Positions 5,799 to 34,560 of a stretch of 64,000 nt of DNA are shown one piece after another; positions within the stretch are counted from its first letter, which is position 1, and each line of letters opens with the position of its first letter. Made by a program: the position numbers and the translations under genes. The notes under the pieces were generated by a model. The model ran no database searches and was not told the DNA's origin. It worked only from the letters and a program-made list of their open reading frames with translations. The DNA is from Candidatus Woesearchaeota archaeon (GTDB lineage Archaea; Nanobdellota; Nanobdellia; SCGC-AAA011-G17; PNOQ01): NCBI GenBank assembly GCA_964587005.1, contig CAZPJW010000001.1:11986-75985 (forward strand). Direction: 5' to 3'.

Positions 5799-5850
5799 AC
5801 AAATAAAAAATAACAAAAACTATTTAAATACACCCTTTACTCAAAAATTC

Positions 5851-11652: not shown

Positions 11653-11778
11653 CGCCGGGACTGGGATTTGAACCCAGATGCCCGAAGGCCCGGTTTGCTC
11701 ACAATCTGATTCGAGATTCACCGATAATACAAATCATTGTAAAATCTCCGGTGCAATACCAGATTATGCGATCCCGGC
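11653..11778 (-). tRNA. Intron-containing tRNA (126 nt), class-II-like architecture; candidate tRNA-Ser(CGA); no encoded CCA
   Basis: Reverse-complement gives acceptor GCCGGGA / UCCCGGC (7 perfect bp) and discriminator G. D arm is GCA-UAAUCUGGUAU-UGC (3-bp stem, long loop with GG). T arm is CUGGG-UUCAAAU-CCCAG. A variable-arm hairpin GCC-UUCG-GGC precedes the T stem. The gene carries about 42 nt more than a mature class-II tRNA. A candidate anticodon loop CUCGAAU sits 37-43 nt after position 26. Exon-intron boundaries were not resolved by hand. Confidence 0.6.
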
Positions 11779-12445: not shown

Positions 12446-12465
12446 ACAATTAACCTCAAATATTG

Positions 12466-12506
12466 TTTATATACACTACGCCCGTACGTGGCAAGCTGGC
12501 AACTTA
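12466..12506 (-). promoter_or_regulatory. TATA box (12466-12474) plus conserved upstream 21-bp motif (12486-12506) of the LAGLIDADG gene
   Basis: Minus strand reads AAGTTGCCAGCTTGCCACGTAC, then 11 nt, then TATATAAAC, then 20 nt, then ATG. The same arrangement and a near-identical motif (AAGTTGTCATCTTGTCACGTAC) occur at 62444-62484 upstream of the second LAGLIDADG gene. Confidence 0.45.
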
Positions 12507-12553
12507 AAAAGAGCTTCAAAACATTTATATACCTTACCGAAATCCTATTCATA

Positions 12554-15082
12554 ATGGATGAATTAGAACTAAAATATGATTCTAAAAAAGTAAAAGAGTT
12601 TACAAAGAAATACGGAACAATTCTATTAATCTTAATCCCAATTTTCTTGGCAATATTCTTCAGAGCATACCCATATTCATTACCAATAACAGACCAAACA
12701 GCAAGAGATAGTATGGAAAACAACATAAAGGCACAAATACAAAACGAAATAATCACCCAAGCCCAAGATATAGATCAAAATACTCTAAACACTTTAACAA
12801 ATCAAAGATACCAATCATATGTTTCGGAAAATAAAGAAATAATAGAAGAACAAACAAAACTCCTCTCAGATCAAATAAAACAATTCTATAAAGACGATTC
12901 CGGACAAACATACTTACTAGCAATAGATCCCTATCATTATTTAAGACAAACAGATAACATTCTAGAAAACGGACACGTTGGCGATGAACTAATAGATGGA
13001 ACGCCTCATGACAACCATATGCTAGCACCAAACGGAAGAACTATGCATAACAGCTTCCATCCATACATAACAGCACAACTTCATAAAATTTCTCAAGTAT
13101 TTGGAAATGATTCAACTCTAAAAACCATATTTATAATCCCACTAATTTTCGCAGCATTAGCAGTTATTCCAGCATTTTTCATAACTAGAAAAATAACAGG
13201 AAAACTAGGTGCAACTGTAGCAGCAGTAACAGTAGCAATCCATCAATCATTCCTCGGAAGAACGCCTGCAGGATTTGCCGATACCGATGCATACACAATC
13301 TTCTTTCCCTTAGTTATAGTTTGGCTCTTCTTAGAATCTTTCACTAGAACAAATTCAAAACAAAAATATATTTTTGGGAGTCTTGCAGGATTAGCCACAG
13401 GACTCTTCGCATTTGCTTGGGGAGGATGGTGGTATTTATTTGATATATTGGTAGCAACATTAGGAATTTACTTCATATATTTATTAATAAAATACAAAAA
13501 AAACGTATTCAAAAAAATAAAAACAAAGAATCTCATAAAAACAACAATCTCTTACTTGGCATCTTCAACTTTATTTGTAATATTATTCACAAGTGTAGCG
13601 GACTTCTTAACATTTTATAGAAGCCCAATGGGTGTAATCTTCATAAAACAAGCAGCACACTCAACCCTATGGCCAAACGTATACACCACGGTAGCAGAAT
13701 TAAACACCATAACACTACCCCAAGTAATAAACGCACTTGGAGGAAAATTATTATTCGGAATAGCAGCACTAGGCATTTTACTAGTCTTCCTAAAGAAAAA
13801 GAAACTTCAAACAGAAATAAAATATGGAATTCTACTATTAGTGTGGTTCGCAGTTACTCTCTATACTTCAACAAAAGGAGCAAGGTTTGTAATGTACGCA
13901 GTTCCAATATTCGCAATAGGCTTGGGTATATTCTATGGAAGGATATATACTCTATTAACTAATTACGGTTCAAAAGAACTTGACCTAAACAAAAAATTAC
14001 TTTCAATAAGTCTAATCGTATTAACAATTCTTTCCTTTGTACCTATGGTCAAAACTGCACATCAAACAGCATTATATGAAGTACCTTCATTTACAGATTC
14101 ATGGTACACAGCATTAACAAAAATAAAAGAAGAAACTCCAGAAAATTCAATAGTAAATTCTTGGTGGGACTTTGGACACTGGTTCAAATACTGGACAGAT
14201 CGGGCAGTAACTTTCGATGGGGCCTCACAAGACACGCCGCCAGCACATTGGATTGGAAAAACTATGTTAACTAGTAACGAAGACGAATCAATAGCAATCT
14301 TGAGAATGTTAGACTGCGGAAGTAATGATGCATATGATTTATTACTTGAAGAATCAAACGACCCATTACTAACTAAAAAAACAATAGACAAAATCATATT
14401 ACAAGAAAAAAACACAGCAAAAAACACACTATTACAATACACAGATAATCCGGACCAAATACTAGAAAAAACTCACTGTCAACCACCAGAAGACTATTTC
14501 ATAACATCTGAAGACATGGTATCAAAAGCAGGAGTATGGGCACACTTTGGATCCTGGGATTTTGAAAGAGCATACGCATATAATACAGTTAAAGAAAACA
14601 ATAAAGAAACAGCAATAGCGCAACTACAAGAAAAACTAACTTACTCACAAGAAGAAGCAGAATCAACATTCAGACAATTAAATGGGTTAACTGACCAAGA
14701 AGCAAATCAGTGGATAGCACCATATCCTTCATATTCAAACATCGGGCAATGTTACGAACAAAATACTACAATAGCCTGTTCAAATGGAATAGTAATAGAA
14801 AACAACAGAGCATATGCACAATCAGAACAAGGCGCAATAGAAATAAAACATTACAGAGATGATAAGCAAATATACACTAGTGAAGAAGGAACAGAAGAAA
14901 TAGCAGTAGCATATGTCCCAAAATACCAAACAGTGATGATAATGGACCCAGCATTACTAGGAAGCACATTTACCGAGCTTTACTTCTATGAAGGACAAAA
15001 CTTAAATAATTTCGAGTTATTCGATTTCCAACAAGGAACTGATGGTTTTAGAATCTACACTTGGAAAGTAAAATGGACATAA
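12554..15082 (+). CDS. aglB: Archaeal oligosaccharyltransferase AglB (STT3 family)
   Basis: 13 N-terminal TM helices followed by a periplasmic domain carrying the WWDYG-type motif (SWWDFGHWFKYW). Start set at MDELELKYDSKK (12554) rather than the upstream in-frame ATG at 12488. Length about 840 aa. Confidence 0.85.
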   Translation: MDELELKYDSKKVKEFTKKYGTILLILIPIFLAIFFRAYPYSLPITDQTARDSMENNIKAQIQNEIITQAQDIDQNTLNTLTNQRYQSYVSENKEIIEEQTKLLSDQIKQFYKDDSGQTYLLAIDPYHYLRQTDNILENGHVGDELIDGTPHDNHMLAPNGRTMHNSFHPYITAQLHKISQVFGNDSTLKTIFIIPLIFAALAVIPAFFITRKITGKLGATVAAVTVAIHQSFLGRTPAGFADTDAYTIFFPLVIVWLFLESFTRTNSKQKYIFGSLAGLATGLFAFAWGGWWYLFDILVATLGIYFIYLLIKYKKNVFKKIKTKNLIKTTISYLASSTLFVILFTSVADFLTFYRSPMGVIFIKQAAHSTLWPNVYTTVAELNTITLPQVINALGGKLLFGIAALGILLVFLKKKKLQTEIKYGILLLVWFAVTLYTSTKGARFVMYAVPIFAIGLGIFYGRIYTLLTNYGSKELDLNKKLLSISLIVLTILSFVPMVKTAHQTALYEVPSFTDSWYTALTKIKEETPENSIVNSWWDFGHWFKYWTDRAVTFDGASQDTPPAHWIGKTMLTSNEDESIAILRMLDCGSNDAYDLLLEESNDPLLTKKTIDKIILQEKNTAKNTLLQYTDNPDQILEKTHCQPPEDYFITSEDMVSKAGVWAHFGSWDFERAYAYNTVKENNKETAIAQLQEKLTYSQEEAESTFRQLNGLTDQEANQWIAPYPSYSNIGQCYEQNTTIACSNGIVIENNRAYAQSEQGAIEIKHYRDDKQIYTSEEGTEEIAVAYVPKYQTVMIMDPALLGSTFTELYFYEGQNLNNFELFDFQQGTDGFRIYTWKVKWT

Positions 15083-16988: not shown

Positions 16989-18035
16989 ATGAGAATACTA
17001 TTTATTTCAAGATCCATAAATCCTCCATGGACAGAAGGGGTAAAAAACACTATAAAACTAATAGTTGAGAATATAAACAATCATAATTTCATAGTCCCAA
17101 CAAAAGAAGAATTCTCTTTCAACCTAAAAAATGTAGAAGAATTACCCATATCGAAAGAAGAAGAACCATTCAAAGTTCCATTAAAAAGTAAAATAAATCT
17201 ATTCAAAAACTTAATCTTAAACAAAGAAGTAGATACATACCACATCTTCGGGATGCCAAAGAAACATTCATCCAACCTAATAAATTACATCTCAAAAAAA
17301 AGAAACAAAAAAACAATACAAACTCTTTCAAATATAGAAGATAAAGAAAACAAAAAACTATACTTCGCAGATAAAATCGTAGTAATGAGTAAACATTCCC
17401 AAAATAAACTAAAAAAATTAGAAATAGATTCAGAAGTAATCTACCCTAGCATAGATCTAGTAGAATTTACAAACATAAAAGACTACAGAAAAGAATTAAA
17501 CATAAAAAAAGAAAAGGTAATTCTCTATGCAGGAGACTTAGACAAAGATACAACTCAAAATCTAATAAATATAATTCTAAATACTGATAAAAAAACAAAA
17601 TTCATAATAGCAATAAGAAACAAAACAAAAGAAATTACCAACAATAAACAAATTCTAAAAAACAAAGTAAAAGAACAAAATCTAAAGAATGTAATTTTTG
17701 TAAAAAAGTCAAATATGCCAAGATTAATAAACACTTCAAGTTTAGTAATCTTCCCAGTAAAAAAAATAACATCAAAGCTAGACATTCCGATGATTCTGCT
17801 TGAAGCATTGGCACTAAAAAAACCAATATTAGTTTCAAAAAATCCAATACTGCAAGAAATACTAACACACAAAGCAGGACATTCCTTAGAAATAGAAAAG
17901 TTCCCTGAGATGATAAAAAACATAACACAAAAAGAAATAAACCAACTGTCCAAAAACTGCCGGAAAGTAATCAAAGAAAATTTCAACAAGGATATTATGA
18001 TAAAAAAATACCAAGAAATCTATAACGAACTATGA
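16989..18035 (+). CDS. GT4-like glycosyltransferase (divergent)
   Basis: N-terminus MRILFISRS...PPWTEGVKN resembles a GT4 N-domain. The C-terminal half contains KLDIPMILLEALALKKPILVSK (E..A motif). Weak similarity. Confidence 0.4.
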   Translation: MRILFISRSINPPWTEGVKNTIKLIVENINNHNFIVPTKEEFSFNLKNVEELPISKEEEPFKVPLKSKINLFKNLILNKEVDTYHIFGMPKKHSSNLINYISKKRNKKTIQTLSNIEDKENKKLYFADKIVVMSKHSQNKLKKLEIDSEVIYPSIDLVEFTNIKDYRKELNIKKEKVILYAGDLDKDTTQNLINIILNTDKKTKFIIAIRNKTKEITNNKQILKNKVKEQNLKNVIFVKKSNMPRLINTSSLVIFPVKKITSKLDIPMILLEALALKKPILVSKNPILQEILTHKAGHSLEIEKFPEMIKNITQKEINQLSKNCRKVIKENFNKDIMIKKYQEIYNEL

Positions 18036-19294
18036 AAATGTTATACTCAAAAGAAAAAATAGAAGAATATAAGGTATTGAGGAAATACTTCCTAAAAAAC
18101 AATATCCCAACGCTCCCAATAAAACTCTACACCCATGACGACGATATTGACATAGTAACCATAAATAGAAACCAATACAAAAAAGCAAAAAAACTTCTAA
18201 TAAAGCTAGGCTTCAAAGACCTAAAAAACATAAGTAGATTCAGAGAACCACTAAAAAGACAATTCATTTCAAAGGACTATAAATACATAGTTCATCTACA
18301 CTCAACTATCTCTTGGAATGGGCTAAAATATTTAGACCCAAAAATAGTTTGGAAAAGAAAAATAAAAAAATATGATATCCCAATTCCCTCGCCAGAAGAT
18401 GAGTTACTAATCATTGCAGCACACTCAGTTTTCGAAAACAAAACAATAATTTCAGACGAAAAAAAGTATCTAAAATACCTCGCACAATTCAAACTAGACT
18501 GGAATTATATAAAAAATTCAGCAAAAAAATACAATTGGGAATCCGCACTAAAATATTTTTTAACAGAAACAAAAACCAAAAATGAACTATTCAAAATAAA
18601 TAAACTTTTATTAGTCTCTTTTGATAAGTTATTCAGAGATCTACTAAACTTAAAATTAATTCAAATCCCTTGGCAACTATTCTCATATACTTTTCTAGAT
18701 TATGCATGGTGTTATAGAAACGCAAAGAAAAAAGTAAACAAGAAAAGAATTCTAGTTCTAACTGGTCTAGACGGTTCAGGAAAAACAACACAGGCAAAAT
18801 TATTACATCAATACTTAACAAAAAATAACATAAAAACAACATACAAACATCTAATAAAAAAATCAACAGCACACAAACTAAGAAAACTAGACAAAAAACA
18901 AAAAAACACAGCACTAAAAAGAACTGCAAGAAAAACTTTAGCATTCTACGATCTAATCAAATTCAAAATAGCCCTAAACAAAAACAAAGAACTAATTCTA
19001 TGTGATAGATACTTCTATGATATTCTGGTTCACATAAAATATTTCAAAGAAAAAAACAAACTATTCGAAGAAATCTATAAAAAATTCATTCCGCCAGCAA
19101 CAACAATCTTCCTAGAACTTTCCCCAGAAGAATCTCTAAAAAGAAAACCTGAAGACCCATTAGAAAAATTACAAAAAAAGTACAATCTATATTCAAAATA
19201 CAAAAACAAGTTTCATATAATTGAAACAACAACAATCCAAAAAACCCACGAGAAAATAAAAGAAATCATCGAGGAAACCTTAAATGAAGAATAA
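18032..19294 (+). CDS. Two-domain protein: unknown N-terminal domain fused to a thymidylate-kinase-like P-loop kinase
   Basis: C-terminal half has ILVLTGLDGSGKTTQAKLL (a Walker A like dTMP kinase G.DG.GKTT) and DRYFYDILVH (DRY...). N-terminal about 230 aa carries HDDDIDIV, a possible nucleotidyltransferase-like acidic motif. Embedded in the glycosylation island. Confidence 0.5.
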   Translation: MKMLYSKEKIEEYKVLRKYFLKNNIPTLPIKLYTHDDDIDIVTINRNQYKKAKKLLIKLGFKDLKNISRFREPLKRQFISKDYKYIVHLHSTISWNGLKYLDPKIVWKRKIKKYDIPIPSPEDELLIIAAHSVFENKTIISDEKKYLKYLAQFKLDWNYIKNSAKKYNWESALKYFLTETKTKNELFKINKLLLVSFDKLFRDLLNLKLIQIPWQLFSYTFLDYAWCYRNAKKKVNKKRILVLTGLDGSGKTTQAKLLHQYLTKNNIKTTYKHLIKKSTAHKLRKLDKKQKNTALKRTARKTLAFYDLIKFKIALNKNKELILCDRYFYDILVHIKYFKEKNKLFEEIYKKFIPPATTIFLELSPEESLKRKPEDPLEKLQKKYNLYSKYKNKFHIIETTTIQKTHEKIKEIIEETLNEE

Positions 19295-20168
19295 AATAAT
19301 ACAAACCTTAAAAATAACCATAATGTTAATTATATTCTCAGTAATGATTTATTATTTATCAAATAACTGGGCTTCCTTAAAAGAATACAATCTAACTTTC
19401 AATCTTGCATTCTTAATAATATCATTTGTACTCTTAGGACTTTCTCATATCCTGGCCTCAATAGGTTGGAATCTAATATTAAAATTATTAAAATCAAATA
19501 TTCCGCAAAAAAACGCTTCTGGAATCTATTTCATATCCCAATTGGGACGGTACGTCCCTGGAAAGGTTTGGTACATTCTAGGAAGAGTTGGAATGACGAG
19601 AAAATTCAACATCCCAAAAAGAATCATTCTACTTTCAGGATTTCTAGAACTAATTTTAGTGATGGCTTCCGCTTCAATAATTTTTATCTTAGCATTAATT
19701 TTCTTTCCAATAATCCCAGAAATACAAAACTACCTTCCCCACCTAACAACATTAATAATCCTCATCCTAATCGGAATTCATCCAAAATCATTAAACCTAA
19801 TATTAAAATTTCTCAAAAAAACAGAAATGAAACTCAAATTAAGCTATACAAAAATACTATTAACTTTACTTTTCTTCATAGTGATCTGGATAATCAAAGG
19901 AATAGCATTCTACTATCTAATTTCATCAATAACACTCTTAGACATTTCAAATCTATTCTGGATAATCAGCGTTTTTTCAATTTCCTGGGTCATAGGATAT
20001 TTAATTTTAATAACTCCTGGAGGAATTGGAGCAAGAGAAGGATTGATCATTTATTTACTAACTCCCTTATTCCCATTGCCCTTAACAATAGCAATCTCTC
20101 TCCTAACAAGAATTTGGATGATAATAACAGAATTCACTCTAAGTATTGTTGGTATAAAATTAAGGTAA
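19284..20168 (+). CDS. Flippase-like membrane protein (lysylphosphatidylglycerol-synthase TM region / UPF0104 family)
   Basis: 8 TM helices with the conserved C-terminal block ITPGGIGAREGLIIYLL. This family often accompanies GT2 enzymes. Confidence 0.5.
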   Translation: MKNKIIQTLKITIMLIIFSVMIYYLSNNWASLKEYNLTFNLAFLIISFVLLGLSHILASIGWNLILKLLKSNIPQKNASGIYFISQLGRYVPGKVWYILGRVGMTRKFNIPKRIILLSGFLELILVMASASIIFILALIFFPIIPEIQNYLPHLTTLIILILIGIHPKSLNLILKFLKKTEMKLKLSYTKILLTLLFFIVIWIIKGIAFYYLISSITLLDISNLFWIISVFSISWVIGYLILITPGGIGAREGLIIYLLTPLFPLPLTIAISLLTRIWMIITEFTLSIVGIKLR

Positions 20169-21848
20169 ATTAAAATAACTTAATCTCTGAGTTCCTTTGG
20201 TATACTCATAATCTTTAAACATCACCGTACTTGGATCAATTTCCGCAGCCATCTCTTGAACATTAGAGGTTCCACCATATTCAAATAAGATATAAGTTGG
20301 AGAAGTTTCCTCGCCAACTTGGTAAAATCCAACCTGGGCTATTCTAAAATTATTTTGCACATATTCCATAAACGCAGAGTCTTGTAATCTAGAAAACTCC
20401 CATTGATACAAAAATATCCATTTAAAATCGTACTCATTAACACCTAACTTAATCAACTCTAAATCATTCGGTAATCCCGTTCCTTCCCTATCTGCATGCC
20501 ATAAAGCCCCATAGCTCTGATGTTCAGAATGGAAAACTCTATCAGTTTCGCCAGCATTCTTATCAATATAATTGCCAGCAACATCCAAACCAATAAATTG
20601 AGTATCAAACATTCTATCTTTTGCATCCAAAATCCCTCCCCTATCTCCAAAAACGGGAGGATAAATCAAAAGAACAAACAAAATTAAGTAAGTAACAAAT
20701 CTCAAATAATTTTTTTTCCTATCTGTCTTAAAATAATCATTAAATAAACCAACAACAAACTTAGAAATAATTGCAAAGGCATACATCATCAAAAGCAAAA
20801 CCAGAGGAACCAAGGGATACTGGTGGTAATTATGGCCACTCAATCTCTGGGACATAATAAAAAACCAAACTACTCCACCAAGCAAATAAGACATAATGAA
20901 CTTCCTTCCAAGGGTCTTATGTTTAGATATAATGACAAACAAAACTCCTAGTAAAGCAAAAGCAATCCCTAAATAAGTAAAATTATCTGCAATATATGAT
21001 TTCAAAGGAATCCACAATTCAGAAGAAAAAGCCATAGCAAAATTAATCGTTTCCCCTGCCAAGGCCTCTTTAACTACATATTCTCCTTTCAAATTGTTAT
21101 TATACATCATCCAAATAAGAATCATAATAAAAAACGCTAAAGCAACAATAACCTGTTTACTTCTTTTCTTAACTTCTCCAAAAAATTTCTTATATGGAAA
21201 TAAAGCCAGAATAGGGAAAAACAATACGAAAAAAGTATATTTTGTTATAAAAGACAATGCAGCAAACAATGTAAATATGTAAAAATCCTTTCCCCTGTCA
21301 AATTTCTTCCACTGGATAAAATGAAAAAAACTCCCAATCATAAAAAACAGTGCAGGATTAATCAATTGCACTTGCCTTCCAAAAAAGATAGTCAAAGGAT
21401 TCAATGCAAGTAATAAAGCACCCGCTAAAGCAACATCTTCCCGCTTGAATAGTGCTTTTATCAAAAAGTAAAAATATACAACTGCCCCCAATACAAATAG
21501 AATATTAACAAATCGCGCTAAAAAAAGAGATATCCCAAAAATATTAAACAAAAACCCAACAACTAAAGAAGTAGTAGGAAAAGTATCTGGGTGTATCCCT
21601 TCATTTAATAGATTTAAATCAAAACCATCTGTTTTAGGCAACAAAAAACCATTCGCAAAAAATCCATCTTCTGCAAAGTTCCTGGCCTCACTCAAATAAT
21701 GGTATTCTTTCCAATTATGATACCCAACAACAGGGTAATCTGCGTGATATACTCTTAAAGAAAAGCCCAAAATTAAAATAAGAAATAATAACAAAAGAGA
21801 GGTATTTCTCTTAAATAGATCTGAAGAAACCCCCTTTTTCTCTGCCAT
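20160..21848 (-). CDS. GT-C superfamily membrane glycosyltransferase (ArnT/PMT-like)
   Basis: Start set at MAEKKGVSS (the track ORF begins earlier). N-terminal HNWKEYHYLSEARNF loop between TM1 and TM2. About 11 TM helices plus a C-terminal soluble domain. Confidence 0.45.
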   Translation of the reverse strand: MAEKKGVSSDLFKRNTSLLLLFLILILGFSLRVYHADYPVVGYHNWKEYHYLSEARNFAEDGFFANGFLLPKTDGFDLNLLNEGIHPDTFPTTSLVVGFLFNIFGISLFLARFVNILFVLGAVVYFYFLIKALFKREDVALAGALLLALNPLTIFFGRQVQLINPALFFMIGSFFHFIQWKKFDRGKDFYIFTLFAALSFITKYTFFVLFFPILALFPYKKFFGEVKKRSKQVIVALAFFIMILIWMMYNNNLKGEYVVKEALAGETINFAMAFSSELWIPLKSYIADNFTYLGIAFALLGVLFVIISKHKTLGRKFIMSYLLGGVVWFFIMSQRLSGHNYHQYPLVPLVLLLMMYAFAIISKFVVGLFNDYFKTDRKKNYLRFVTYLILFVLLIYPPVFGDRGGILDAKDRMFDTQFIGLDVAGNYIDKNAGETDRVFHSEHQSYGALWHADREGTGLPNDLELIKLGVNEYDFKWIFLYQWEFSRLQDSAFMEYVQNNFRIAQVGFYQVGEETSPTYILFEYGGTSNVQEMAAEIDPSTVMFKDYEYTKGTQRLSYFNLP

Positions 21849-21898
21849 AGAAAAGGTTCCTTCATAATCTATATAAAGTTTACTAAATTCCCGCAAAT

Positions 21899-22582
21899 GT
21901 GAAGAACGCACATATAATTATAGCGGCTTGGAATGAGGAGAAAAATATCGGCTCCACGATACAAGGCCTAAAAAAAGAAGGATATAATAACATCATTGTA
22001 GTGGACGATGGTTCTAAAGACAAAACCTCAGAAATAGCAGAAAAAGAAGGGGCAACAGTTTTAAGGCATATGATCAACAGAGGGCAGGGTGCAGCATTAC
22101 AAACTGGAATGACTTATTCAATCTTAAATAACGCAGAATATTTGGTGCATTTTGACGCCGATGGACAACACAATTCCAAAGAAATAAAGGATATACTCTT
22201 ACCATTAAAAAATAAAGAAGCAGAAGCAACTCTGGGTTCAAGGTTTTTGGGAGAAGAAAAGGTCCCATTCAGAAGAAAATTAACACTAAAAACCGCAATA
22301 TGGGTAATCTGGATATTTTATGGATTAAAACTAACCGACGCACACAATGGTTTCCGTGGTTTCACAAAAGAGGCAGCAAGAAAGGTAGTACTAACCTCGG
22401 ACAAGATGGAGCACGCCTCAGAAGTCATAGAAAGAATAAAGAAAAGAAATATAAAATACAAAGAAATCCCCGTAAATATAATCTATGAAGATCATCATCT
22501 AAAAGAGGGTAGAAAAGGACAAGGAAAATTTGATGCGTTCAATATTGTCCTAAAAATGTTACAAAAGAAAATATGGGAGTAA
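21899..22582 (+). CDS. GT2 glycosyltransferase (Dol-P-sugar synthase-like, soluble)
   Basis: IIAAWNEEKNI...IVVDDGSKDKT...NRGQGAALQTG...HFDADGQH are characteristic GT2 motifs. Confidence 0.7.
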   Translation: MKNAHIIIAAWNEEKNIGSTIQGLKKEGYNNIIVVDDGSKDKTSEIAEKEGATVLRHMINRGQGAALQTGMTYSILNNAEYLVHFDADGQHNSKEIKDILLPLKNKEAEATLGSRFLGEEKVPFRRKLTLKTAIWVIWIFYGLKLTDAHNGFRGFTKEAARKVVLTSDKMEHASEVIERIKKRNIKYKEIPVNIIYEDHHLKEGRKGQGKFDAFNIVLKMLQKKIWE

Positions 22583-22586
22583 AAAG

Positions 22587-22928
22587 ATGGAAACTATACA
22601 AATAATAATTTTAATTTTTAGCTTATTTGCATTAAGTAGAGTAATCATAAACATCAGACAGAGAAATTTGGGAAAACTTGAGGGAATATTCTGGCCCCTA
22701 TTCTGGATAATGGCTGCCTTTGTAGCTACATTCCCAAACATAATTGTCAGTATTGCAAATTTCTTAGGAGTTGACAGGGGAGTAGATTTAATCATCTACG
22801 GAACAATAATCATTCTAGCATACTTAATCTACCGATTATACGCACAAGTAACAACTATAGAAAGAAACATAACAAAAATAGTGAGAACAATTTCAATAAA
22901 AAAACAAAATGAAAAATCCAAAAATTAG
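22587..22928 (+). CDS. Small 3-TM membrane protein (DUF2304-like GT2 partner)
   Basis: 113 aa with three hydrophobic helices. Sandwiched between two GT2 genes, as is typical of DUF2304. Confidence 0.4.
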   Translation: METIQIIILIFSLFALSRVIINIRQRNLGKLEGIFWPLFWIMAAFVATFPNIIVSIANFLGVDRGVDLIIYGTIIILAYLIYRLYAQVTTIERNITKIVRTISIKKQNEKSKN

Positions 22929-23922
22929 TGTTCTTATACCTTGCTACAACGAAGAGAAGTACATTACAAATAGTCTAGACTCTATAATAAATCAAGACTA
23001 CAAAGGAGAAATAGAAATAATTATAGCAGACGGACACTCAACAGACAAAACGAGAGAGATAATAAAACAATTACAAAAAGTAAAAATAGAAAACAGAAAA
23101 ATAATTCTTGTAGATAACCCAAAAAAAAGCACAGCAGTAGGAAGAAATATCTGCCTTTTCAAAGCAACCGGAAAATACTCTCAAAATTTCTCAGCACACA
23201 TGTTCTTGGCACAAAAAGACATCCTATCAAAATTCGTAAATGAACTAGAAAAGGCTCCAGAAAAAGTAATCTGTGTAGGAACAAACCCAACAAGTCCAAA
23301 AAAACAAAACTTCATCCAAAAAATATCATCGGTTCTATTCCAAACTTATCTTGCAGGTGCAAAAAACCTCTACCAAAATAAAAAAGTAAGAAGTAAAACA
23401 TTTGTAAACGGTCTAACAATCGGAATGTATAGAACGGAAGCACTAAAAAAAGAAGGAGGGTTCGACCCAAAATTCTGGGTAAATCAGGATGGAGAACTCC
23501 ACTACAGATTAACAAAACTAAAAGGATACAAGCTTCTACTAATCCCAAATATCACAATTACTCAAGCAAAAAGAAGCTCACTAAAAAAACTACTAAAACA
23601 AATGTTCAGATACGGCAGAGGAGCAATGCTAAGAGTATACAAATACCCAAAATCATTCCACTTATTCCAACTAGGTCCGGCATCATTAACAATCTACTTA
23701 CTTTTCACACTAATCTCATTAATAACAATAAATCTCTTTACAAAAATTCTATTATCTGGATTAATAATTTACGCAATAATCGCAATATTTTCAACATTAC
23801 TTGCCACAAGAAACCTTTTATACATCCTACTAAGTCCAATATTCTTCCTAATTATGCACATAGCATACGGAACGGGAACAATTGTAGGATTATTCAAACC
23901 TCAAATAACGAAAAGTGAGTGA
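22909..23922 (+). CDS. GT2 glycosyltransferase with C-terminal TM helices
   Basis: ISVLIPCYNEEKYITNSLDSIINQDY...IIADGHSTDKT N-terminal GT2 fold. Three to four C-terminal TM helices. Confidence 0.65.
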   Translation: MKNPKISVLIPCYNEEKYITNSLDSIINQDYKGEIEIIIADGHSTDKTREIIKQLQKVKIENRKIILVDNPKKSTAVGRNICLFKATGKYSQNFSAHMFLAQKDILSKFVNELEKAPEKVICVGTNPTSPKKQNFIQKISSVLFQTYLAGAKNLYQNKKVRSKTFVNGLTIGMYRTEALKKEGGFDPKFWVNQDGELHYRLTKLKGYKLLLIPNITITQAKRSSLKKLLKQMFRYGRGAMLRVYKYPKSFHLFQLGPASLTIYLLFTLISLITINLFTKILLSGLIIYAIIAIFSTLLATRNLLYILLSPIFFLIMHIAYGTGTIVGLFKPQITKSE

Positions 23923-26077
23923 AATGGAAAAAATAAGATTCGGATTAGTTGGATGCGGGATGATTTCCCCAAAGCATTTCAAAGCAATAGCAGATTTGCC
24001 AGAAGCAGAATTAGTTGCAGTATGTGACACAGACAAAGAAAAGTTAAAGAACGCTTCAAACGAACAAAACTGCAAAGCATATTCAAATTATGAAGACATG
24101 GTAAACAATCCAGACATAGATGTTATTTCTATCTGCACACCAAATGGATTACACGCAGATATGTCAGTAGCCGCATTAAATGCAGGAAAACATGTTCTTT
24201 GTGAAAAACCAATGTCACTAAACATAACAGACACAAAAAGAATAATAAAAGCAGAACAAGAATCTGGAAAAAAATTCATACTCGTAAAACAAAACAGATA
24301 CAATCCGCCAGTAGCCGCCCTAAAAGACGCAGTTTACAACAACAAACTAGGAAACATCGTAATGATTGGTTCCAATGTCTATTGGAATAGAAATGATCAA
24401 TATTATGAAAACTCAAAATGGAGAGGAACAAAAGACCTAGATGGGGGAACACTATTCACTCAAGCAAGCCACTTTCTAGATTTAATGCTTTGGATAGGCG
24501 GACCGGTAGAAAGCGTACAAAGCTACATGAACAACTTCAGTCATCCACAAATTGAAATCGAAGATACTGGAGTAGTTTTAGTCAAATTCAAAAATGGAAC
24601 ACTTGGAAAAATAATATTCACAACCTGCGTATATGATCATAATCTAGAAGGAAGTATTTTTGTTTTAGGTTCAAAAGGAACAATAAAGGTAGGCGGAAAA
24701 TACCTAAACGAATTAGATCACTGGGATGTAGAAAACACAGAAAGGCCAGTATTAGAAAGCTCTGCCCCGCCAAATGAATACGGAACATACCAAGGGACAA
24801 TGTCAAATCACGACAAAGTATACAAAAACGTTCTAGAAGTTGTATTAAATAATGAAAACATAAAAGCAAACAGCATACAGGGACACGAATCTGTAGAAGT
24901 TATGCAAGCGGCTTACGAGTCTGCAAAAACAGGAAAAGAAATATTCCTTCCATTAAAAGAAGAAAATGAAATAACAGCAATCCTTCCAGCAGCAGGAAAA
25001 GGAACACGAATGTATCCCATAACAAACTCTCTACACAAATCATTAATCCACGTTAACGGAGAAACATTATTGCAAAGATCAATCTCAACATTAAAAAAAG
25101 CAGGAATAAACAAATTCATATTGGTAACTGGGCATCAAGAAGAGCAAGTAAAAAATTACATAAAAAACAATCTTTCTGAAGAAAATATTCAAACAGTAAC
25201 TCAGGAAGAAGTGCTTGGACTCCCTCACGTAATAAAAACCGCCTCACACTTAATAGATTCAGATTTCATGATTTTCTGTCCGGATAATATTTACGAAGAT
25301 CCAAAAGACATACTCAACCTAAAAGAAAATTTCCAAAAACACAAACCAATCCTTTTGCAATCTGTGACAGTAACTCCCAACTCTCAAAAAAACAGGGGAA
25401 ATCACTTCGTAAACGATCTAGAGAATATTGAAAACAATTTATTCTTAACAAAAAAACAAGAACAGACAAAAGAGGGACTTCCATTATTTACAACTGGAAT
25501 AACCTTTTTTTCAAAAAAAGTGCTAGACCTACTTCCAGATTTAAGTACTTTAACTGAAGAATATCCCTTGGCTACATTTGTTTCAAAATTAGAAGAACCA
25601 TATATGATTCAAATATTAAAAAATCTAAGACACGACATAACACAGCCTGAAGACATTGAAAAGTACACTAGACATCTCGCAATTCCAAAAACACACAAAC
25701 AAGGAATAAGCATAATCTTACTAAATAAAAATCAAGAAATCTTAATGCAGCAACGAGATAACATACCAACAATAACTTATCCTGGCTATTGGGGACTTTT
25801 CGGAGGCTCAATGGAAGACAATGAAACCCCAGAAGAAGCAATAATCCGAGAAGTAAAAGAGGAAATAAATTTCGATCTAAAAAATTTCGGACTGTTCAGA
25901 GTTTTCACACAAAACGGAAAAAAAGAATATGCATTCGTAGGTGAGATTGACAAAGAAATAGAGCAATTAAATCTAACAGAAGGCCAAAACATGAAGTTTT
26001 TTAAACCCGGGAGAATTCTCTCTCTAGACGTTAGACCAGATGATTTAGCAACAATAAAAAAATACATAGGAAAATAA
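23915..26077 (+). CDS. Tri-domain fusion: Gfo/Idh/MocA oxidoreductase + sugar-phosphate nucleotidyltransferase + NUDIX hydrolase
   Basis: Residues 1-330 have IRFGLVGCGMISPKHFKAI (a Rossmann fold) and an EKP motif (CEKPMSL). Residues 345-600 have AILPAAGKGTRMYPITNSLHKSLIHV (a G.G.R nucleotidyltransferase loop). Residues 600-720 have GYWGLFGGSMEDNETPEEAIIREVKEEINFDL (a Nudix box). Confidence 0.65.
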   Translation: MSEMEKIRFGLVGCGMISPKHFKAIADLPEAELVAVCDTDKEKLKNASNEQNCKAYSNYEDMVNNPDIDVISICTPNGLHADMSVAALNAGKHVLCEKPMSLNITDTKRIIKAEQESGKKFILVKQNRYNPPVAALKDAVYNNKLGNIVMIGSNVYWNRNDQYYENSKWRGTKDLDGGTLFTQASHFLDLMLWIGGPVESVQSYMNNFSHPQIEIEDTGVVLVKFKNGTLGKIIFTTCVYDHNLEGSIFVLGSKGTIKVGGKYLNELDHWDVENTERPVLESSAPPNEYGTYQGTMSNHDKVYKNVLEVVLNNENIKANSIQGHESVEVMQAAYESAKTGKEIFLPLKEENEITAILPAAGKGTRMYPITNSLHKSLIHVNGETLLQRSISTLKKAGINKFILVTGHQEEQVKNYIKNNLSEENIQTVTQEEVLGLPHVIKTASHLIDSDFMIFCPDNIYEDPKDILNLKENFQKHKPILLQSVTVTPNSQKNRGNHFVNDLENIENNLFLTKKQEQTKEGLPLFTTGITFFSKKVLDLLPDLSTLTEEYPLATFVSKLEEPYMIQILKNLRHDITQPEDIEKYTRHLAIPKTHKQGISIILLNKNQEILMQQRDNIPTITYPGYWGLFGGSMEDNETPEEAIIREVKEEINFDLKNFGLFRVFTQNGKKEYAFVGEIDKEIEQLNLTEGQNMKFFKPGRILSLDVRPDDLATIKKYIGK

Positions 26078-26078
26078 T

Positions 26079-26945
26079 ATGGCAACAAAATTTGAAGAAG
26101 GAGTAAGGACTCGTTTCGAAAAAAGAAAAAGAGAAGACTGGGACGGAAGAGGGAAATCCGTAACAGAAGATAGATACGGTTCTAGAAGAGGTGCTTTAGA
26201 AGATGAATTTGAAAAAGATGCTCTAAAGGCTGTCTTAAGAGGAAGAAGCTATGACTACGCTTTAGATGTCGGAATCGGAGACGGAAGATTAGCAAGAGTA
26301 TACGGCCCCCATATAAAAAGACTTCTTGGAATTGATGTATCGCCAGAACAATTAAATTATGTTGAACAAAATATAGATGGATTAGATCTTAGAGTAAGTA
26401 CAGAAGTTTGTGGTGACGCTTCAAAATTAGAAATCTTACTATATCCTGGAAAAGATGGAGCAATAGAAGGCAGGGAAGATGGAAATATAGAAATATCTTT
26501 CTACGAAAACTGGGATAATGCAGAAAGAACTCCTATTGAAAGTGAACAATTTGACTTAGTAATGTGCTCAAGAGTTCTACAACATGTATCTAGATGGAAA
26601 GATGCAATTGCAGAGCAAGCTAGAGTTCTAAAACCTGGCGGAGATTTATTACTACTATTATACAATAGATTTTCTCCATATGGCATGAAAAAACTTGTAG
26701 ATAATATTAAAGATCCAAAAAAAGGAAATTTTAGAAATCCTATAGATATAAGAATGCAATTAAGAAAAAATGGCCTAAACCCTCTCTACCACTCGGGCGC
26801 CATATTGAGTCCATTAGACCTTTTCCCAAAAGACCTTTCAGAAGGCCAAGAAAAATTTGCAAGAAGAGTAGAACAACTTGCCGGCATATCTCCATTTAAG
26901 TTCTTCGGAGCAAGACAAGTTATCCTAGCTAGAAAAGAATCATAA
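26079..26945 (+). CDS. Class I SAM-dependent methyltransferase
   Basis: Motif I LDVGIGDGRLARVY and post-I acidic residue LGIDVS. Motif II region CSRVLQHV. Confidence 0.55.
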   Translation: MATKFEEGVRTRFEKRKREDWDGRGKSVTEDRYGSRRGALEDEFEKDALKAVLRGRSYDYALDVGIGDGRLARVYGPHIKRLLGIDVSPEQLNYVEQNIDGLDLRVSTEVCGDASKLEILLYPGKDGAIEGREDGNIEISFYENWDNAERTPIESEQFDLVMCSRVLQHVSRWKDAIAEQARVLKPGGDLLLLLYNRFSPYGMKKLVDNIKDPKKGNFRNPIDIRMQLRKNGLNPLYHSGAILSPLDLFPKDLSEGQEKFARRVEQLAGISPFKFFGARQVILARKES

Positions 26946-28042
26946 TGAAAATTCCATTAGTTGATCTAAAAGCAAACTACGATTCAATAAAAGAGGAGAT
27001 AGACGAAACAATAAAACAAACGATAGATAATTCTACTTTTATTATGGGACAACCAGTAAAAGAGTTTGATAAAAACTGGGCAGAATATTGTAATTCACAA
27101 TTTTCATTTGGAGTAGCAAATGGAACAGAAGCAATAAGACTTTCACTAATAGCCTTAGGGATAAAACAAGGCGATGAAGTAATAACTTCTCCAAACACAT
27201 TCATAGCAACAACAGAAGCAATCTCATCACTGGGAGCAACTCCTGTTTTTGTAGATATAGACGAAACAACTTTCACAATAAATCCCGATTTAATAGAAGA
27301 AAAAATAACTCCAAGAACAAAAGCAATAATTCCTGTTCATTTATACGGACATCCATGCGATATGGAAAAAATAATAGAAATCGCAAGAAAAAGAGATATA
27401 AAAATCCTTGAAGACTGCGCACAATCTCACGGAGCAACATTCAAAGGCAAAAAAACAGGAACCCTTGGAAACATAGCTGGCTTCTCAATGTTCCCTGCAA
27501 AAATTTTGGGTGCTTTCGGAGACGCAGGAGCAATAATAACAGATGACGAAAGACTTGCTGAAAAAATAAATCTACTAAGAAATCACGGAAGATTTTCAAA
27601 ATATGAACATCTACAAGAAGGATTTAATTCAAGAATAGATGCACTTCAAGCAAACATTCTAAATGTAAAATTAAAACATCTTGATATTTGGATTGAAAAA
27701 AGAAGACAACTTGCAAGCAAATACAAAGAAGAACTATTAGAAGTTGTAACCTGTCCAAGAGAAAAAGACTGGGCAAAACATTCCTACTACATGTATGTCA
27801 TAAGAACAGAAAAAAGAGATGAATTAAAAGAATTTTTAGAACAAAATGAAATCTCTTGTCAAATCCATTACCCAATTCCTTTACATTTACAACCCGCATA
27901 CAAACATCTTAATTACAAAGAAGGAGATTTCCCAATAACAGAAAAAGTAGCAAAAGAAATTTTATCTATTCCTTTATACCCTGAATTAACAGAAGAACAA
28001 CAGAATTACATAATTTCTAAGATAAAGGACTTCTTTTCATAG
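26945..28042 (+). CDS. DegT/DnrJ/EryC1/StrS family PLP-dependent sugar aminotransferase
   Basis: Full-length family fold with MKIPLVDLKANY, the GDEVITSPNTFIAT block, and the FSMFPAKILGAFGDAGAI block containing the Schiff-base Lys region. Confidence 0.75.
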   Translation: MKIPLVDLKANYDSIKEEIDETIKQTIDNSTFIMGQPVKEFDKNWAEYCNSQFSFGVANGTEAIRLSLIALGIKQGDEVITSPNTFIATTEAISSLGATPVFVDIDETTFTINPDLIEEKITPRTKAIIPVHLYGHPCDMEKIIEIARKRDIKILEDCAQSHGATFKGKKTGTLGNIAGFSMFPAKILGAFGDAGAIITDDERLAEKINLLRNHGRFSKYEHLQEGFNSRIDALQANILNVKLKHLDIWIEKRRQLASKYKEELLEVVTCPREKDWAKHSYYMYVIRTEKRDELKEFLEQNEISCQIHYPIPLHLQPAYKHLNYKEGDFPITEKVAKEILSIPLYPELTEEQQNYIISKIKDFFS

Positions 28043-29994: not shown

Positions 29995-31824
29995 ATGTGT
30001 GGAATTGTCGGTTTTAACTGGAAAGATGAACCCTTACTAAAAAATATGCTAAAAGTAACAAGACATAGAGGTCCAGATGATCAAGGAACTTTCCAAAGCA
30101 AAAACATCTCATTAGGACACAACAGACTAAGCATAATAGATCTTTCAAAAAAAGGAAAAAATCCAATTTGGAATGAAAATAAAACAATCTGCGTTCTACA
30201 CAATGGAGAAATATACAACTTCAAAGAACTAAAAAAAGAATTAATAAAAAAAGGACACAAATTCAAAACAAAAACAGATACAGAAGTAATTCTAAAAGGA
30301 TATGAAGAATACAAAGAAAAAATCCTAGAAAAATTAAACGGAATGTTTGCTTTCGTAATCTACAATAAAAAAACAAACGAATTATTCATAGCAAGAGACA
30401 GACTTGGAATAAAACCATTGTACTACCACTATGAAAACAAAAAACTAATCTTTGCTTCAGAAATAAAAGCAATACTCCAAAATAAAGAAATAAAAAGAAT
30501 ACCAAACCCAGAAGCAATAACAGAATACTTATCTTTCCAAAATATTCTAGATGAAAAAACATTCTTCAAAGGAATAAATATCCTCCTACCTGGAAACTAC
30601 TTAACTCTAAAAAACAACAAATTAGAAATAAAAGAATACTGGAAACCCGAATTCAAATACAAAAAAAGAACATACAAAGAGTTAATAAAAGAATTCCAAA
30701 AAACATTCAACGACAGCGTAAAAAGACATATGATTTCAGACGTTCCCGTAGGAACCTACCTAAGCGGAGGATTCGACTCAGGATCAGTAACTACAATAGC
30801 ATCAAAAGAAACAAAAAAGAAACTAAACACATTTACATGTAAATTTGATATAAAAGGAGAATTCGATGAAACTCCTTGCGCAAGAGCAGTTGCAAAACAA
30901 GTTCAAGCAAACAATTACGAAGTTGAAGTAAACAAAGAAGACTTCCTAAAAAACATAGAAACAACATTATACCATTTAGACGAACCAAGAGTAGGAATTC
31001 CAATAATCTCACAATACCATTTATCACAATTAGTTTCACAACACGTAAAAGTAGTTTTAACCGGACATTCCGGAGATGAACTATTCGCGGGCTATCCTGT
31101 TTTCCAATCAAAACTATACAAAAGAGAATTAAAAAACCCATTTAACATTTTCAAGGTATTTTTCAAAGTTCTAAAAGATAAAAAAAGACTAAACCTAGCT
31201 TACTACTTACTTCTACCACTAATCTACCCAGAAATACAACACGGAATAGCAATAATCTTCCCAGAAAAAGAAAAAAACAAATTATTAACAAACTCTTTCA
31301 AAAACAAAACAAAGCATTATTCCCCAAATAAATCAGTAAACAAAGTTCTAAGGGGAAACAAATTAAACGAAATAGAAAAACTACAATACCTCTACCTAAA
31401 AACATATTTGCCAGGATTATTCATTGCAGAAGACAAAATGGGAATGGCACATTCAATAGAAGCAAGAATTCCACTATGTGATAAAGAAATGATAGATTTC
31501 GCATTATCTATCCCAATAAGACAAAAATTAAGAAATAACGAACTAAAAGCAACAATAAAAAACGGAATGAGAAACATAATTCCAAATATTCTTTACAAAC
31601 AAGAAAAAAGAGGATTCCCAACGCCGCTAGGACCATGGCTAAACCAAGGATTAAAAAGATATTTCGCAAAAATCCTACTAAGTAGACAAGCACTAGAGAG
31701 AAATATCTACAAAAAAGAATATGTAAAAAAACTTCTCAAAAAAACAGACTTTTGGTCAGCAAACAAACTTTGGTCATTACTAAACATAGAGCTCTGGCAT
31801 AGAATTTTCATAGATAATCAATAA
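29995..31824 (+). CDS. Asparagine synthetase (glutamine-hydrolysing)-like amidotransferase (AsnB/PseA-type)
   Basis: N-terminal MCGIVG (Cys2 Ntn nucleophile). Synthetase-domain PP-loop motif YLSGGFDSGSV. Length 609 aa. Confidence 0.75.
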   Translation: MCGIVGFNWKDEPLLKNMLKVTRHRGPDDQGTFQSKNISLGHNRLSIIDLSKKGKNPIWNENKTICVLHNGEIYNFKELKKELIKKGHKFKTKTDTEVILKGYEEYKEKILEKLNGMFAFVIYNKKTNELFIARDRLGIKPLYYHYENKKLIFASEIKAILQNKEIKRIPNPEAITEYLSFQNILDEKTFFKGINILLPGNYLTLKNNKLEIKEYWKPEFKYKKRTYKELIKEFQKTFNDSVKRHMISDVPVGTYLSGGFDSGSVTTIASKETKKKLNTFTCKFDIKGEFDETPCARAVAKQVQANNYEVEVNKEDFLKNIETTLYHLDEPRVGIPIISQYHLSQLVSQHVKVVLTGHSGDELFAGYPVFQSKLYKRELKNPFNIFKVFFKVLKDKKRLNLAYYLLLPLIYPEIQHGIAIIFPEKEKNKLLTNSFKNKTKHYSPNKSVNKVLRGNKLNEIEKLQYLYLKTYLPGLFIAEDKMGMAHSIEARIPLCDKEMIDFALSIPIRQKLRNNELKATIKNGMRNIIPNILYKQEKRGFPTPLGPWLNQGLKRYFAKILLSRQALERNIYKKEYVKKLLKKTDFWSANKLWSLLNIELWHRIFIDNQ

Positions 31825-33816: not shown

Positions 33817-34560
33817 ATGGAAAAAAAGAGAACTTTGGCTGTAATTCCTGCTAGAGGGGGCTCAAAAGGAATTCCACGAAAAAACATAAAACCATTTCTA
33901 GGAAAACCCCTAATCCACTACACGATAAACTTAGCTCTATCCTGCCCAGAAATAGACAAAGTAATTGTTTCAACTGATGATGATGAAATAGCTCAAATCT
34001 GCAAAGAAGCAGGAGCAGATGTACCCTTCAAAAGACCGGAAGAACTAGCAACAGACACATGTCCAAGTATCCCGGTAATACAACACGCAGTCAAATTCTT
34101 AGAAGATCAAGGAGAACACTATGACAATGTATTAATGCTAGAACCCACTGCACCACTAAGAACAAAAAAGATAGTTCAAGATGCAATCTTAGCACTAGAC
34201 GATGCAGAATCAGAAACTGTAGTTAGTGTTAGAGAATATGATATTGATTTCTCAGATGTTCTAGAAGGAGATCAAAATAATTTCCTACATGTTTTCTTAG
34301 AAACAAAAACTACAACAAGAAGGCAAGACACAAAAAACATCTACATAATGGACGCAGCAGTCTACGGAGCAAAAAGAGCTGCATTAATGAACAAAGACTT
34401 AATCATGTTCAACCCATACAAAGAAATGGCAGATCTAAAAACAAAAATGGTGGTTTCAGACCCAAGAGTATCTGTAGAAATAGATGCAAATGAACATTGG
34501 GATTACGCAGAATATTTATACAAAAAATATCAAAAATTAATTGAGGGGGAAGAAGAATGA
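33817..34560 (+). CDS. CMP-nonulosonate (N-acylneuraminate-type) cytidylyltransferase, NeuA/LegF/PseF family
   Basis: LAVIPARGGSKGIPRKNIKPFLGKPLIHYTI matches the acylneuraminate cytidylyltransferase signature. Length 247 aa. Confidence 0.75.
   Translation: MEKKRTLAVIPARGGSKGIPRKNIKPFLGKPLIHYTINLALSCPEIDKVIVSTDDDEIAQICKEAGADVPFKRPEELATDTCPSIPVIQHAVKFLEDQGEHYDNVLMLEPTAPLRTKKIVQDAILALDDAESETVVSVREYDIDFSDVLEGDQNNFLHVFLETKTTTRRQDTKNIYIMDAAVYGAKRAALMNKDLIMFNPYKEMADLKTKMVVSDPRVSVEIDANEHWDYAEYLYKKYQKLIEGEEE

Follow-up and report, generated by a model that had tools for sequence, protein, structure and literature searches.

The conversion of a sugar C-3 hydroxyl into a modified amine has been described in several pathways. 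In the di-N-acetyl-mannosaminuronic acid pathway, WbpB/WlbA oxidises C-3 of UDP-GlcNAcA, and C-3 oxidation, transamination by WbpE/WlbC and N-modification by WbpD/WlbB make up the UDP-GlcNAc3NAcA and ManNAc3NAcA routes (PMC10622841). In gentamicin biosynthesis, the Gfo/Idh/MocA oxidoreductase GenD2, the transaminase GenS2 and the S-adenosylmethionine (SAM)-dependent N-methyltransferase GenN turn a C-3 hydroxyl into a methylamino group (PMC4340712). For UDP-kanosamine, RifL/RifK/RifM pair a Gfo/Idh/MocA 3-dehydrogenase and a DegT-family transaminase acting on a UDP-hexose, from which the nucleotide is then hydrolysed off (PMC8788734). Here, we analysed a stretch of 64,000 nucleotides from a Candidatus Woesearchaeota archaeon (contig CAZPJW010000001.1, positions 11,986 to 75,985; hereafter the window), in which one open reading frame (ORF; 23915..26077, + strand) joins an oxidoreductase of this superfamily to a sugar-1-phosphate nucleotidyltransferase (NT) and a NUDIX domain. 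We read this tri-domain ORF as a fusion of genes 1 and 2 of a conserved cassette for a 3-amino sugar. From its sequence, its product would be a true enzyme with three functions, encoded in a glycosylation island of an archaeon, and we put the probability of the whole reading, comprising fused cassette, 3-amino-sugar pathway and lipid-linked delivery together, at roughly 0.55.

The tri-domain ORF is uninterrupted and encodes 720 amino acids if GTG 23915 is the start. More likely, the protein has 717 amino acids and starts from ATG 23924, the start assigned by the gene callers, which lies one base past the upstream stop codon. Pfam assigned GFO_IDH_MocA to residues 7–122 (E 1e-33), with C-terminal oxidoreductase domains up to residue 342, NTP_transferase to residues 355–491 (E 7e-16) and NUDIX to residues 594–709 (E 5e-15). 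All these matches exceed the gathering cut-offs, so the three domain assignments that a first-pass annotation had made from the letters alone hold, and the motif strings GLVGCGMISPKHF, EKP and AILPAAGKGTRMYP are all present in the translation. Both linkers are short: the one joining oxidoreductase to NT has about 6–7 residues, the one joining NT to NUDIX about 6. An AlphaFold2 (AF2) model featured three well-folded domains with a mean predicted local distance difference test score (pLDDT) of 83.8; its predicted template modelling score (pTM) of 0.61 means that their relative arrangement is undefined.

The same annotation had taken the ORF for a single polypeptide, and this view withstood closer inspection. 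An identical tri-domain protein occurs on at least 10 contigs of separate JGI, ENA and Logan assemblies (among them JGI 3300007510, JGI 3300009128 and ENA ERZ23498660), and an orthologue of 85% identity with the same neighbours on four further contigs (ENA ERZ247946xx, SRR19040528). In total, at least 14 contigs of independent assemblies carry the triple fusion, which is represented by two lineages. Between these lineages, the synonymous divergence (dS) has reached about 1.1 with the reading frame still open, and the first linker, between oxidoreductase and NT, is identical in both. The oxidoreductase has a ratio of nonsynonymous to synonymous substitutions (dN/dS) of 0.065, the NT one of 0.116 and the NUDIX domain the lowest of the three, 0.048; these values indicate that selection maintains all three parts. 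A mis-assembly or a hidden frameshift was rejected, given that the assemblies are independent, the two lineages diverged and the dN/dS values low.

The triple fusion was recovered only in the archaeal lineage of the window (P0001, P0002), in line with the rarity presumed earlier. These two proteins were found by the full-length search only; searches with the C-terminal part, exhaustive searches and locus searches missed them although they match. As the partial searches thus overlooked the window's own protein, the rarity of the fusion rests mainly on the full-length search and on the test for an upstream stop codon in the unfused relatives described below.

The first domain (residues 7–347, 23933..24955, + strand) is a putative NDP-sugar C-3 dehydrogenase of the WlbA type. 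It matches the Pfam families PF01408, PF02894 and PF22725, carries a GxGxxS Rossmann motif, EKP and QASHFLDL, and was modelled by AF2 mostly with pLDDT above 90. Residues 5–347 align end to end with residues 12–352 of 3q2i (E 2e-78), with EKPM and QASH(F/Y)xDL conserved, and similarly well with 3q2k (E 5e-76); according to the fold-search annotation, these structures are the WlbA dehydrogenases of Chromobacterium violaceum and Bordetella pertussis. With Foldseek, the domain matched WlbA solved with NADH and UDP-GlcNAcA at a TM score of 0.97 and 38% identity. Fold, EKP motif and full-length similarity all place the domain in the WlbA subfamily. GenD2 is a structural neighbour as well, albeit a distant one with 19% identity, and GenD2/GenS2/GenN differ from the window system by acting on a finished pseudotrisaccharide instead of a nucleotide sugar and by having neither transferase nor Nudix enzyme.

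The likeness to the Wbp/Wlb pathway lies in C-3 oxidation, transamination and N-modification and does not extend to the full five-enzyme set of WbpA, WbpB, WbpE, WbpD and WbpI, as the window contains only the WbpB-like and the WbpE-like protein. Members of the WlbA subfamily act on UDP-GlcNAcA with a bound NAD that alpha-ketoglutarate recycles. No gene of the UDPG_MGDP_dh family (WbpA-like, UDP-GlcNAc 6-dehydrogenase) was present among the window ORFs scanned, which makes a uronic acid a doubtful substrate for domain 1. A hexapeptide acetyltransferase was likewise absent from the window, and Epimerase_2 matched only weakly, in an unrelated protein of 641 amino acids. The window cassette hence differs by a methyltransferase in place of the acetyltransferase, by the missing genes for the WbpA 6-dehydrogenase and the WbpI 2-epimerase, and by the added and fused NT and Nudix parts. 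WlbA-like oxidoreductases are found fused in other proteins, too (P0006, P0009, P0011/P0012/P0014, P0018), where the partners are a methyltransferase of another family, short-chain dehydrogenase/reductase (SDR)-type epimerase/dehydratase, hexapeptide acetyltransferase and UDP-sugar 6-dehydrogenase domains. We considered the oxidoreductase-methyltransferase fusion P0006 as a Rosetta-stone link to the window methyltransferase and rejected it, as its methyltransferase belongs to a different family.

The second domain (residues 354–587, 24974..25675, + strand), identified with Pfam, NCBIfam and a family alignment (A1), is a sugar-1-phosphate NT that scores 58.9 bits against PF00483 (cut-off 21.2). 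The NCBIfam profiles AglF and Arch_glmU span residues 354–587, for AglF positions 2–233 of 234, so that the NT domain is full length. Archaeal GlmU, AglF and the RmlA long form gave the best NCBIfam profiles, and no equivalog cut-off was reached. Conserved are the loop P358-x-A-G-x-G-x-R365, K375, Q430/G435, C455-P-D457 and D574, of which P-x-A-G-x-G-x-R, K27, CPD109 and D226 (A1 numbering) are invariant in the alignment. The base motif Q-x4-G suggests UTP or dTTP as the nucleotide.

The third domain (residues 594–709, 25694..26041, + strand) is a small MutT-like NUDIX domain, as indicated by Pfam (PF00293, 56.1 bits, cut-off 21.1), a pLDDT of 85–93 and PDB matches that are weak and of MutT type (E 3e-6 and weaker); NCBIfam offered no matching equivalog. 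Its Nudix box GSMEDNETPEEAIIREVKEEINF (25805..25873, + strand) follows the pattern Gx5Ex7REUxEEx. The box had been called complete, which is correct for the catalytic glutamates and not for the last G, which is replaced by N. In the family alignment, every row has G631, R645, E646, E649 and E650, and at least 90% of the rows have E637. Judged by these conserved residues, both the NT and the Nudix catalytic site are predicted to be intact. An EvaA-type, Nudix-fold 2,3-dehydratase (compare PMC8987622) was set aside, since the domain fits the canonical PF00293 and keeps the hydrolase glutamates.

Beyond the window, the two C-terminal domains form proteins of their own. With the C-terminal 372 residues as query, about 15 representatives of free-standing NT-NUDIX proteins of 360–390 amino acids were found among 1.84 billion proteins, all with only generic database names. 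In a 14-member alignment, the NT loop, the lysine, Q-x4-G, C-P-D and the second aspartate are invariant, and so are G, R-E and E-E of the Nudix box. Conservation is highest in the NUDIX domain, with 48–63% identity across the cassette loci compared with 29–40% for the NT. In every family member recovered, the NT is fused to NUDIX; since Nudix-containing queries seeded the searches, this constancy is to be read with an ascertainment caveat. One protein of 743 amino acids (P0258) has NT, NUDIX and DegT in one chain, an independent fusion that ties the module a second time to an aminotransferase step. An AF2 model of NT-NUDIX alone, built from nine sequences, was poor (pLDDT 64). The new element here is a small, unnamed NT-NUDIX family that is spread over bacterial phyla and has both active sites conserved. 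We found no name or publication for this family or for the triple fusion, and a broad review of the Nudix clan mentions no nucleotidyltransferase fusion (PMC5389931).

In bacteria and metagenomes, these proteins are encoded in an unfused cassette of oxidoreductase, NT-NUDIX, methyltransferase or N-formyltransferase, and DegT, which we found in about 30 loci from GTDB genomes (Latescibacterota, Acidobacteriota, Alphaproteobacteria, Desulfococcaceae) and metagenomes. Order and strand are kept in L012–L018 and L039–L057 with an almost constant neighbourhood, and identities to the window (L013–L017, L039–L056) amount to 29–46% for NT-NUDIX, 37–51% for the methyltransferase and 48–57% for DegT. An in-frame stop codon closes the NT-NUDIX ORF upstream in all 25 of the 25 loci tested, from which it follows that the window ORF corresponds to cassette genes 1 and 2 in fused form; the missing stop codon between them is the only difference of the window from the cassette. 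The third slot is taken by a methyltransferase in 21 loci and by a formyltransferase in at least eight (L008, L009/L010, L012, L018, L038, L043, L051, L057, L120/L121). Pfam analysis of 62 ORFs around 13 cassette loci, of which the 25 most frequent families were considered, revealed methyltransferases, glycosyltransferases and Wzm/Wzt exporters as flanking genes. The glycosyltransferases and exporters indicate that the bacterial cassettes sit in polysaccharide loci. A second, free-standing nucleotidyltransferase, seen in L013, was rejected as a general cassette gene: the corresponding ORF of L048 encodes a methyltransferase, and the frequent flanking families do not include NTP_transferase. 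An asparagine-synthase-like amidotransferase adjoins the cassette in L120/L121 (L120 2160–7845) and is also encoded in the window 2 kb downstream (29995–31824); the L120/L121 and window proteins share 27% identity, and their target may be a uronic acid or similar group of the same glycan, which they would amidate.

The closest free-standing relatives of domain 1 (about 50–51% identity) occur in two loci without NT-NUDIX, L118 and L119. There, the oxidoreductase gene is separated by that of a hexapeptide acetyltransferase from a DegT gene whose product is 56–57% identical to that of the window, and in L119 two further genes intervene between oxidoreductase and DegT. By sequence, oxidoreductase, acetyltransferase and DegT of L118 and L119 correspond to the classical WbpB/WbpD/WbpE set.

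Directly downstream of the fusion, the window encodes a class I SAM methyltransferase (26079..26945, + strand; Pfam), with orthologues at the same cassette position, and a DegT-family pyridoxal-phosphate-dependent aminotransferase (26945..28042, + strand; Pfam E 1e-120). Acetyl-, formyl- and methyltransferases thus alternate in the slot between oxidoreductase and DegT, and we infer from this that the window methyltransferase modifies the C-3 amine, probably as an N-methyltransferase. The DegT protein is predicted to aminate C-3. Its best match in the PDB is QdtB (3frk, E 8e-115), followed by 7b0d, DesV and WbpE (E 2e-78). WbpE, among its best solved relatives, is a C-3 aminotransferase, and QdtB and DesV we take to be C-3 aminotransferases as well.

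These relationships also bear on the role initially proposed for the locus. The fusion had been suggested to channel the early Ptm/Leg steps toward a GDP-amino-sugar precursor of legionaminic acid, as in Campylobacter, in a single chain. It does contain a nucleotidyltransferase and an oxidoreductase, and other parts of the window encode NeuB, a homologue of CMP-sugar synthetases and additional DegT proteins. Nevertheless, this role has to be given up almost entirely. The oxidoreductase is a WlbA-type 3-dehydrogenase, DegT is nearest to C-3 aminotransferases and stays below the NCBIfam cut-offs for LegC (226.6 bits versus 420) and PseC (263.5 versus 423.5), no 4,6-dehydratase adjoins the cassette in the window, and the NT has no CBS domains. 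The nonulosonate genes of the window are 8–18 kb away in other gene groups, all on the + strand: a nonulosonate-type CTP_transf_3 gene (33817–34560), and a group of NeuB (44316–45431), a metallophosphoesterase (45445–46230), a divergent DegT (46223–47353) and a FemAB/GNAT-like protein (47346–48422). NeuB and CMP-sugar-synthetase families were also absent from the 25 most frequent Pfam families of the flank survey. The Nudix domain had further been likened to the NDP-sugar hydrolases that act late in nonulosonate pathways. These enzymes are UDP-GlcNAc 2-epimerase-like or GT-B enzymes, not Nudix hydrolases, and this comparison fails. What stands of the neighbour argument is that methyltransferase and DegT belong with the fusion; their legionaminic role does not.

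The second-best DegT match, 7b0d, is labelled a glutamine-scyllo-inositol transaminase, and one may hence think of an aminocyclitol route in which inositol-phosphate nucleotidyltransferase, inositol dehydrogenase and inosose aminotransferase activities would be followed by N-methylation. The top NCBIfam match of domain 1 is in fact inositol 2-dehydrogenase (133 bits), and the NT weakly matches an inositol-1-phosphate cytidylyltransferase model (46 bits). However, all of these NCBIfam scores are far below their cut-offs, domain 1 scores 267 bits against WlbA and at most 96 against inositol dehydrogenase structures, the context is one of glycosyltransferases and polysaccharide exporters, and the 7b0d label could not be traced to any paper. 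We consider such a route very improbable.

From homology and synteny, we may thus outline a pathway to a 3-amino sugar. The NT domain would join a hexose-1-phosphate and an NTP to an NDP-sugar, which the WlbA-type domain would oxidise at C-3 with NAD+. The adjacent DegT enzyme would transaminate the 3-keto sugar, and the adjacent SAM methyltransferase would methylate the new amine and thereby pull two unfavourable equilibria forward, following the same logic as WbpB/WbpE/WbpD, ArnA/ArnB and GenD2/GenS2/GenN. The likely product is an NDP-3-(methylamino)-3-deoxy-hexose for a surface glycan. Most likely, the Nudix domain would hydrolyse an NDP-sugar to NMP and sugar-1-phosphate.

For delivery of this product, the genes upstream of the fusion offer candidates. 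A PMT_2/GT-C membrane glycosyltransferase (20160..21911, − strand), a small GT2 of 227 amino acids with a DUF2304 membrane protein (21899..22928, + strand) and a GT2 of 337 amino acids with a hydrophobic C-terminal part (22909..23922, + strand) were all identified with Pfam. The GT-C gene lies beside the cassette also in L004 and L005, the small GT2/DUF2304 pair is kept in the second fusion lineage, and the 337-residue GT2, directly upstream of the fusion, is kept in L004–L006. In L118, a GT2 (43% identical), DUF2304 and a second GT2 (27%) adjoin the oxidoreductase (51% identical) and DegT (57% identical). In mycobacteria, the small GT2 PpgS and a small membrane protein, Rv3632, make a polyprenyl-phosphate amino sugar that the GT-C enzyme Rv3779 transfers outside (PMC3485146). 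The window set of GT2, DUF2304 and PMT_2 beside the cassette mirrors this system and resembles ArnC/ArnT, suggesting that the product is delivered via a lipid-phosphate carrier. The 227-residue GT2 is closest to polyprenyl-phosphate amino-sugar synthases; with 165 bits against PpgS (cut-off 370) it is not a PpgS orthologue, and it also remains below the cut-off for AglJ (108 bits). The GT2 and DUF2304 proteins would thus load the NDP-3-(methylamino)-3-deoxy-hexose onto polyprenyl phosphate, and the GT-C protein would carry out the final transfer from the lipid-linked donor outside the cell. The window contains membrane genes of the same kinds as those upstream of the fusion (19284–22582) a second time, namely GT2 paired with PMT_2 (GT-C) and another LPG_synthase_TM gene (39236–41456 and 43333–44280, + strand). 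Inside the glycosyltransferase cluster, a protein of 420 amino acids combines NTP_transf_5 with a thymidylate-kinase-like P-loop domain (18032–19294, + strand).

A different use of the nucleotide would arise if it served only as a transient handle for C-3 oxidation, amination and methylation, after which the Nudix domain would remove it and leave a free or 1-phosphorylated 3-amino sugar. The kanosamine route from UDP-glucose by RifL/RifK/RifM offers an exact model of how 3-oxidation and transamination are followed by UDP removal (PMC8788734), and having the first and the last activity in one chain would make sense. We regard this scenario as quite unlikely, though: the cassettes are surrounded by glycosyltransferase and Wzm/Wzt exporter genes of polysaccharide loci, those of the window and L118 adjoin a putative polyprenyl-phosphate glycosyltransferase, which would depend on an NDP-sugar as donor, and neither kinase nor phosphatase is associated with the cassette. 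Moreover, RifM is a phosphatase and not a Nudix enzyme, and the Rif context is secondary metabolism, whereas that of the window is glycan assembly.

For the Nudix domain of the proposed 3-amino-sugar enzyme, we tentatively favour, at somewhat less than even odds, a role in the clearance or control of pathway nucleotide sugars, by analogy to GDP-mannose mannosyl hydrolase in GDP-mannose-derived pathways. Gmm/WcaH/WbdQ of O-antigen and colanic-acid clusters likewise are Nudix enzymes encoded in nucleotide-sugar operons. They differ in being free-standing, not fused to a pyrophosphorylase, and of another Nudix subfamily; the weak PDB matches of the fused window domain characterise it as MutT-like. 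A Nudix gene inside a sugar-nucleotide operon has a precedent also in the window itself, where Gmd (GDP-mannose 4,6-dehydratase, 49789–50832), a free-standing NUDIX protein (50829–51290) and a DegT protein (51268–52374) follow each other on the + strand. Among NCBIfam models, this NUDIX protein matches that of the GDP-mannose mannosyl hydrolase subfamily best (78.6 bits, cut-off 146), and the trio resembles a perosamine-type module equipped with a Nudix enzyme of its own.

Alternatively, the two fused domains might exchange the nucleotide of a sugar. The Nudix domain would cut a housekeeping UDP-sugar, such as UDP-GlcNAc, to UMP and sugar-1-phosphate, and the NT would re-activate the latter with a different NTP to feed a private NDP-sugar pool. 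This is the sole reading that explains why a GlcNAc-type cassette has its own transferase and why this is constantly fused to Nudix. Close oxidoreductase and DegT relatives work without a transferase, presumably on a housekeeping NDP-sugar. The Nudix domain as the most conserved part is what would be expected for a universal substrate, and DegT and formyltransferase resemble dTDP-sugar enzymes, whereas WlbA takes a UDP-sugar. NadM-Nudix (NMN adenylyltransferase/ADP-ribose pyrophosphatase, 2qjt), a weak match of the Nudix domain and the only solved transferase-Nudix fusion among the matches, also has nucleotidyltransferase and Nudix in one chain. It couples breakdown and resynthesis in NAD metabolism, involves no sugar-1-phosphate chemistry, and its transferase fold is unrelated to that of the sugar-1-phosphate NT. 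Further, we know of no nucleotide exchange enzyme of such kind, the Q-x4-G base motif suits UTP as well as dTTP, and a glucose-based route needs no Nudix because glucose-1-phosphate is freely available. Overall, nucleotide exchange seems rather unlikely to us. If true, it would represent a new mode of keeping glycan pathways apart, and the two domains would be a portable tool with which to produce unusual NDP-sugars. The share left after clearance or control, exchange and final nucleotide removal falls to a Nudix domain acting on some non-sugar substrate.

Several observations weigh against our reading of a tri-functional 3-amino-sugar enzyme. The substrate of WlbA is UDP-GlcNAcA, but a gene for UDP-GlcNAc 6-dehydrogenase is missing among the window ORFs scanned, and the closest oxidoreductase relatives, in L118 and L119, do without any NT-NUDIX. 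Most bacterial cassettes carry another Gfo/Idh/MocA subfamily of only about 21% identity, for which UDP-GlcNAc 3-dehydrogenase is the best NCBIfam profile, below its cut-off. In L038, NT-NUDIX and a formyltransferase are found with neither oxidoreductase nor DegT nearby. The methyltransferase has no close characterised relative, and its weak PDB matches include O-methyltransferases, so that assigning N- over O-methylation depends solely on the equivalence of the cassette slots. A Nudix domain that destroys NDP-sugars looks futile in the same chain as an NDP-sugar-making NT, a mere control function leaves the constant NT-NUDIX fusion unexplained, and the AF2 model has no defined inter-domain geometry.

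The wider window is archaeal, as indicated by aTrm56 (5304–5816, − strand), an STT3/AglB-type oligosaccharyltransferase and a set of AMP phosphorylase, R15P isomerase and RuBisCO III for AMP salvage. The latter comprises, all on the + strand, an IF-2B-family ribose-1,5-bisphosphate isomerase-like protein (56488–57291), form III RuBisCO large subunit (57920–59212) and an AMP-phosphorylase-like protein (60220–61725), between which a HAD hydrolase (57279–57923) and an AI-2E transporter (59250–60272) are encoded. The GC content of the window is about 32%, and scans of the window for tRNA genes and Rfam families gave no matches. Two free-standing LAGLIDADG_3 homing-endonuclease-like ORFs lie on the − strand at 11764–12756 and 61787–62422, the first of which overlaps the 5′ end of the listed STT3 ORF (12488–15082). 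Positions 1–6000 have an extreme GC skew of −0.33 to −0.59 per kb and encode, on the − strand, a PKD-domain protein of 849 amino acids and an ORF of 495 amino acids without Pfam match.

The novelty of the locus lies in the rare triple fusion and in the uncharacterised NT-NUDIX family, whereas the 3-amino-sugar chemistry itself is conventional. The initial view that the single-chain arrangement is undescribed therefore stands for the fusion and for the NT-NUDIX family; the cassette itself is widespread, and its sequence of dehydrogenase, aminotransferase and N-modification is well known. For this archaeon, which apparently is uncultivated, represented by metagenome contigs only and probably low in GC, the cassette provides a testable route to a modified 3-amino sugar beside its oligosaccharyltransferase. 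Whichever task the Nudix half has (quality control, pool control or nucleotide exchange), understanding it would contribute a rule on how nucleotide-sugar pools are managed. In addition, the NT-NUDIX cassette is a possible source of enzymes for the chemo-enzymatic synthesis of rare NDP-amino sugars.

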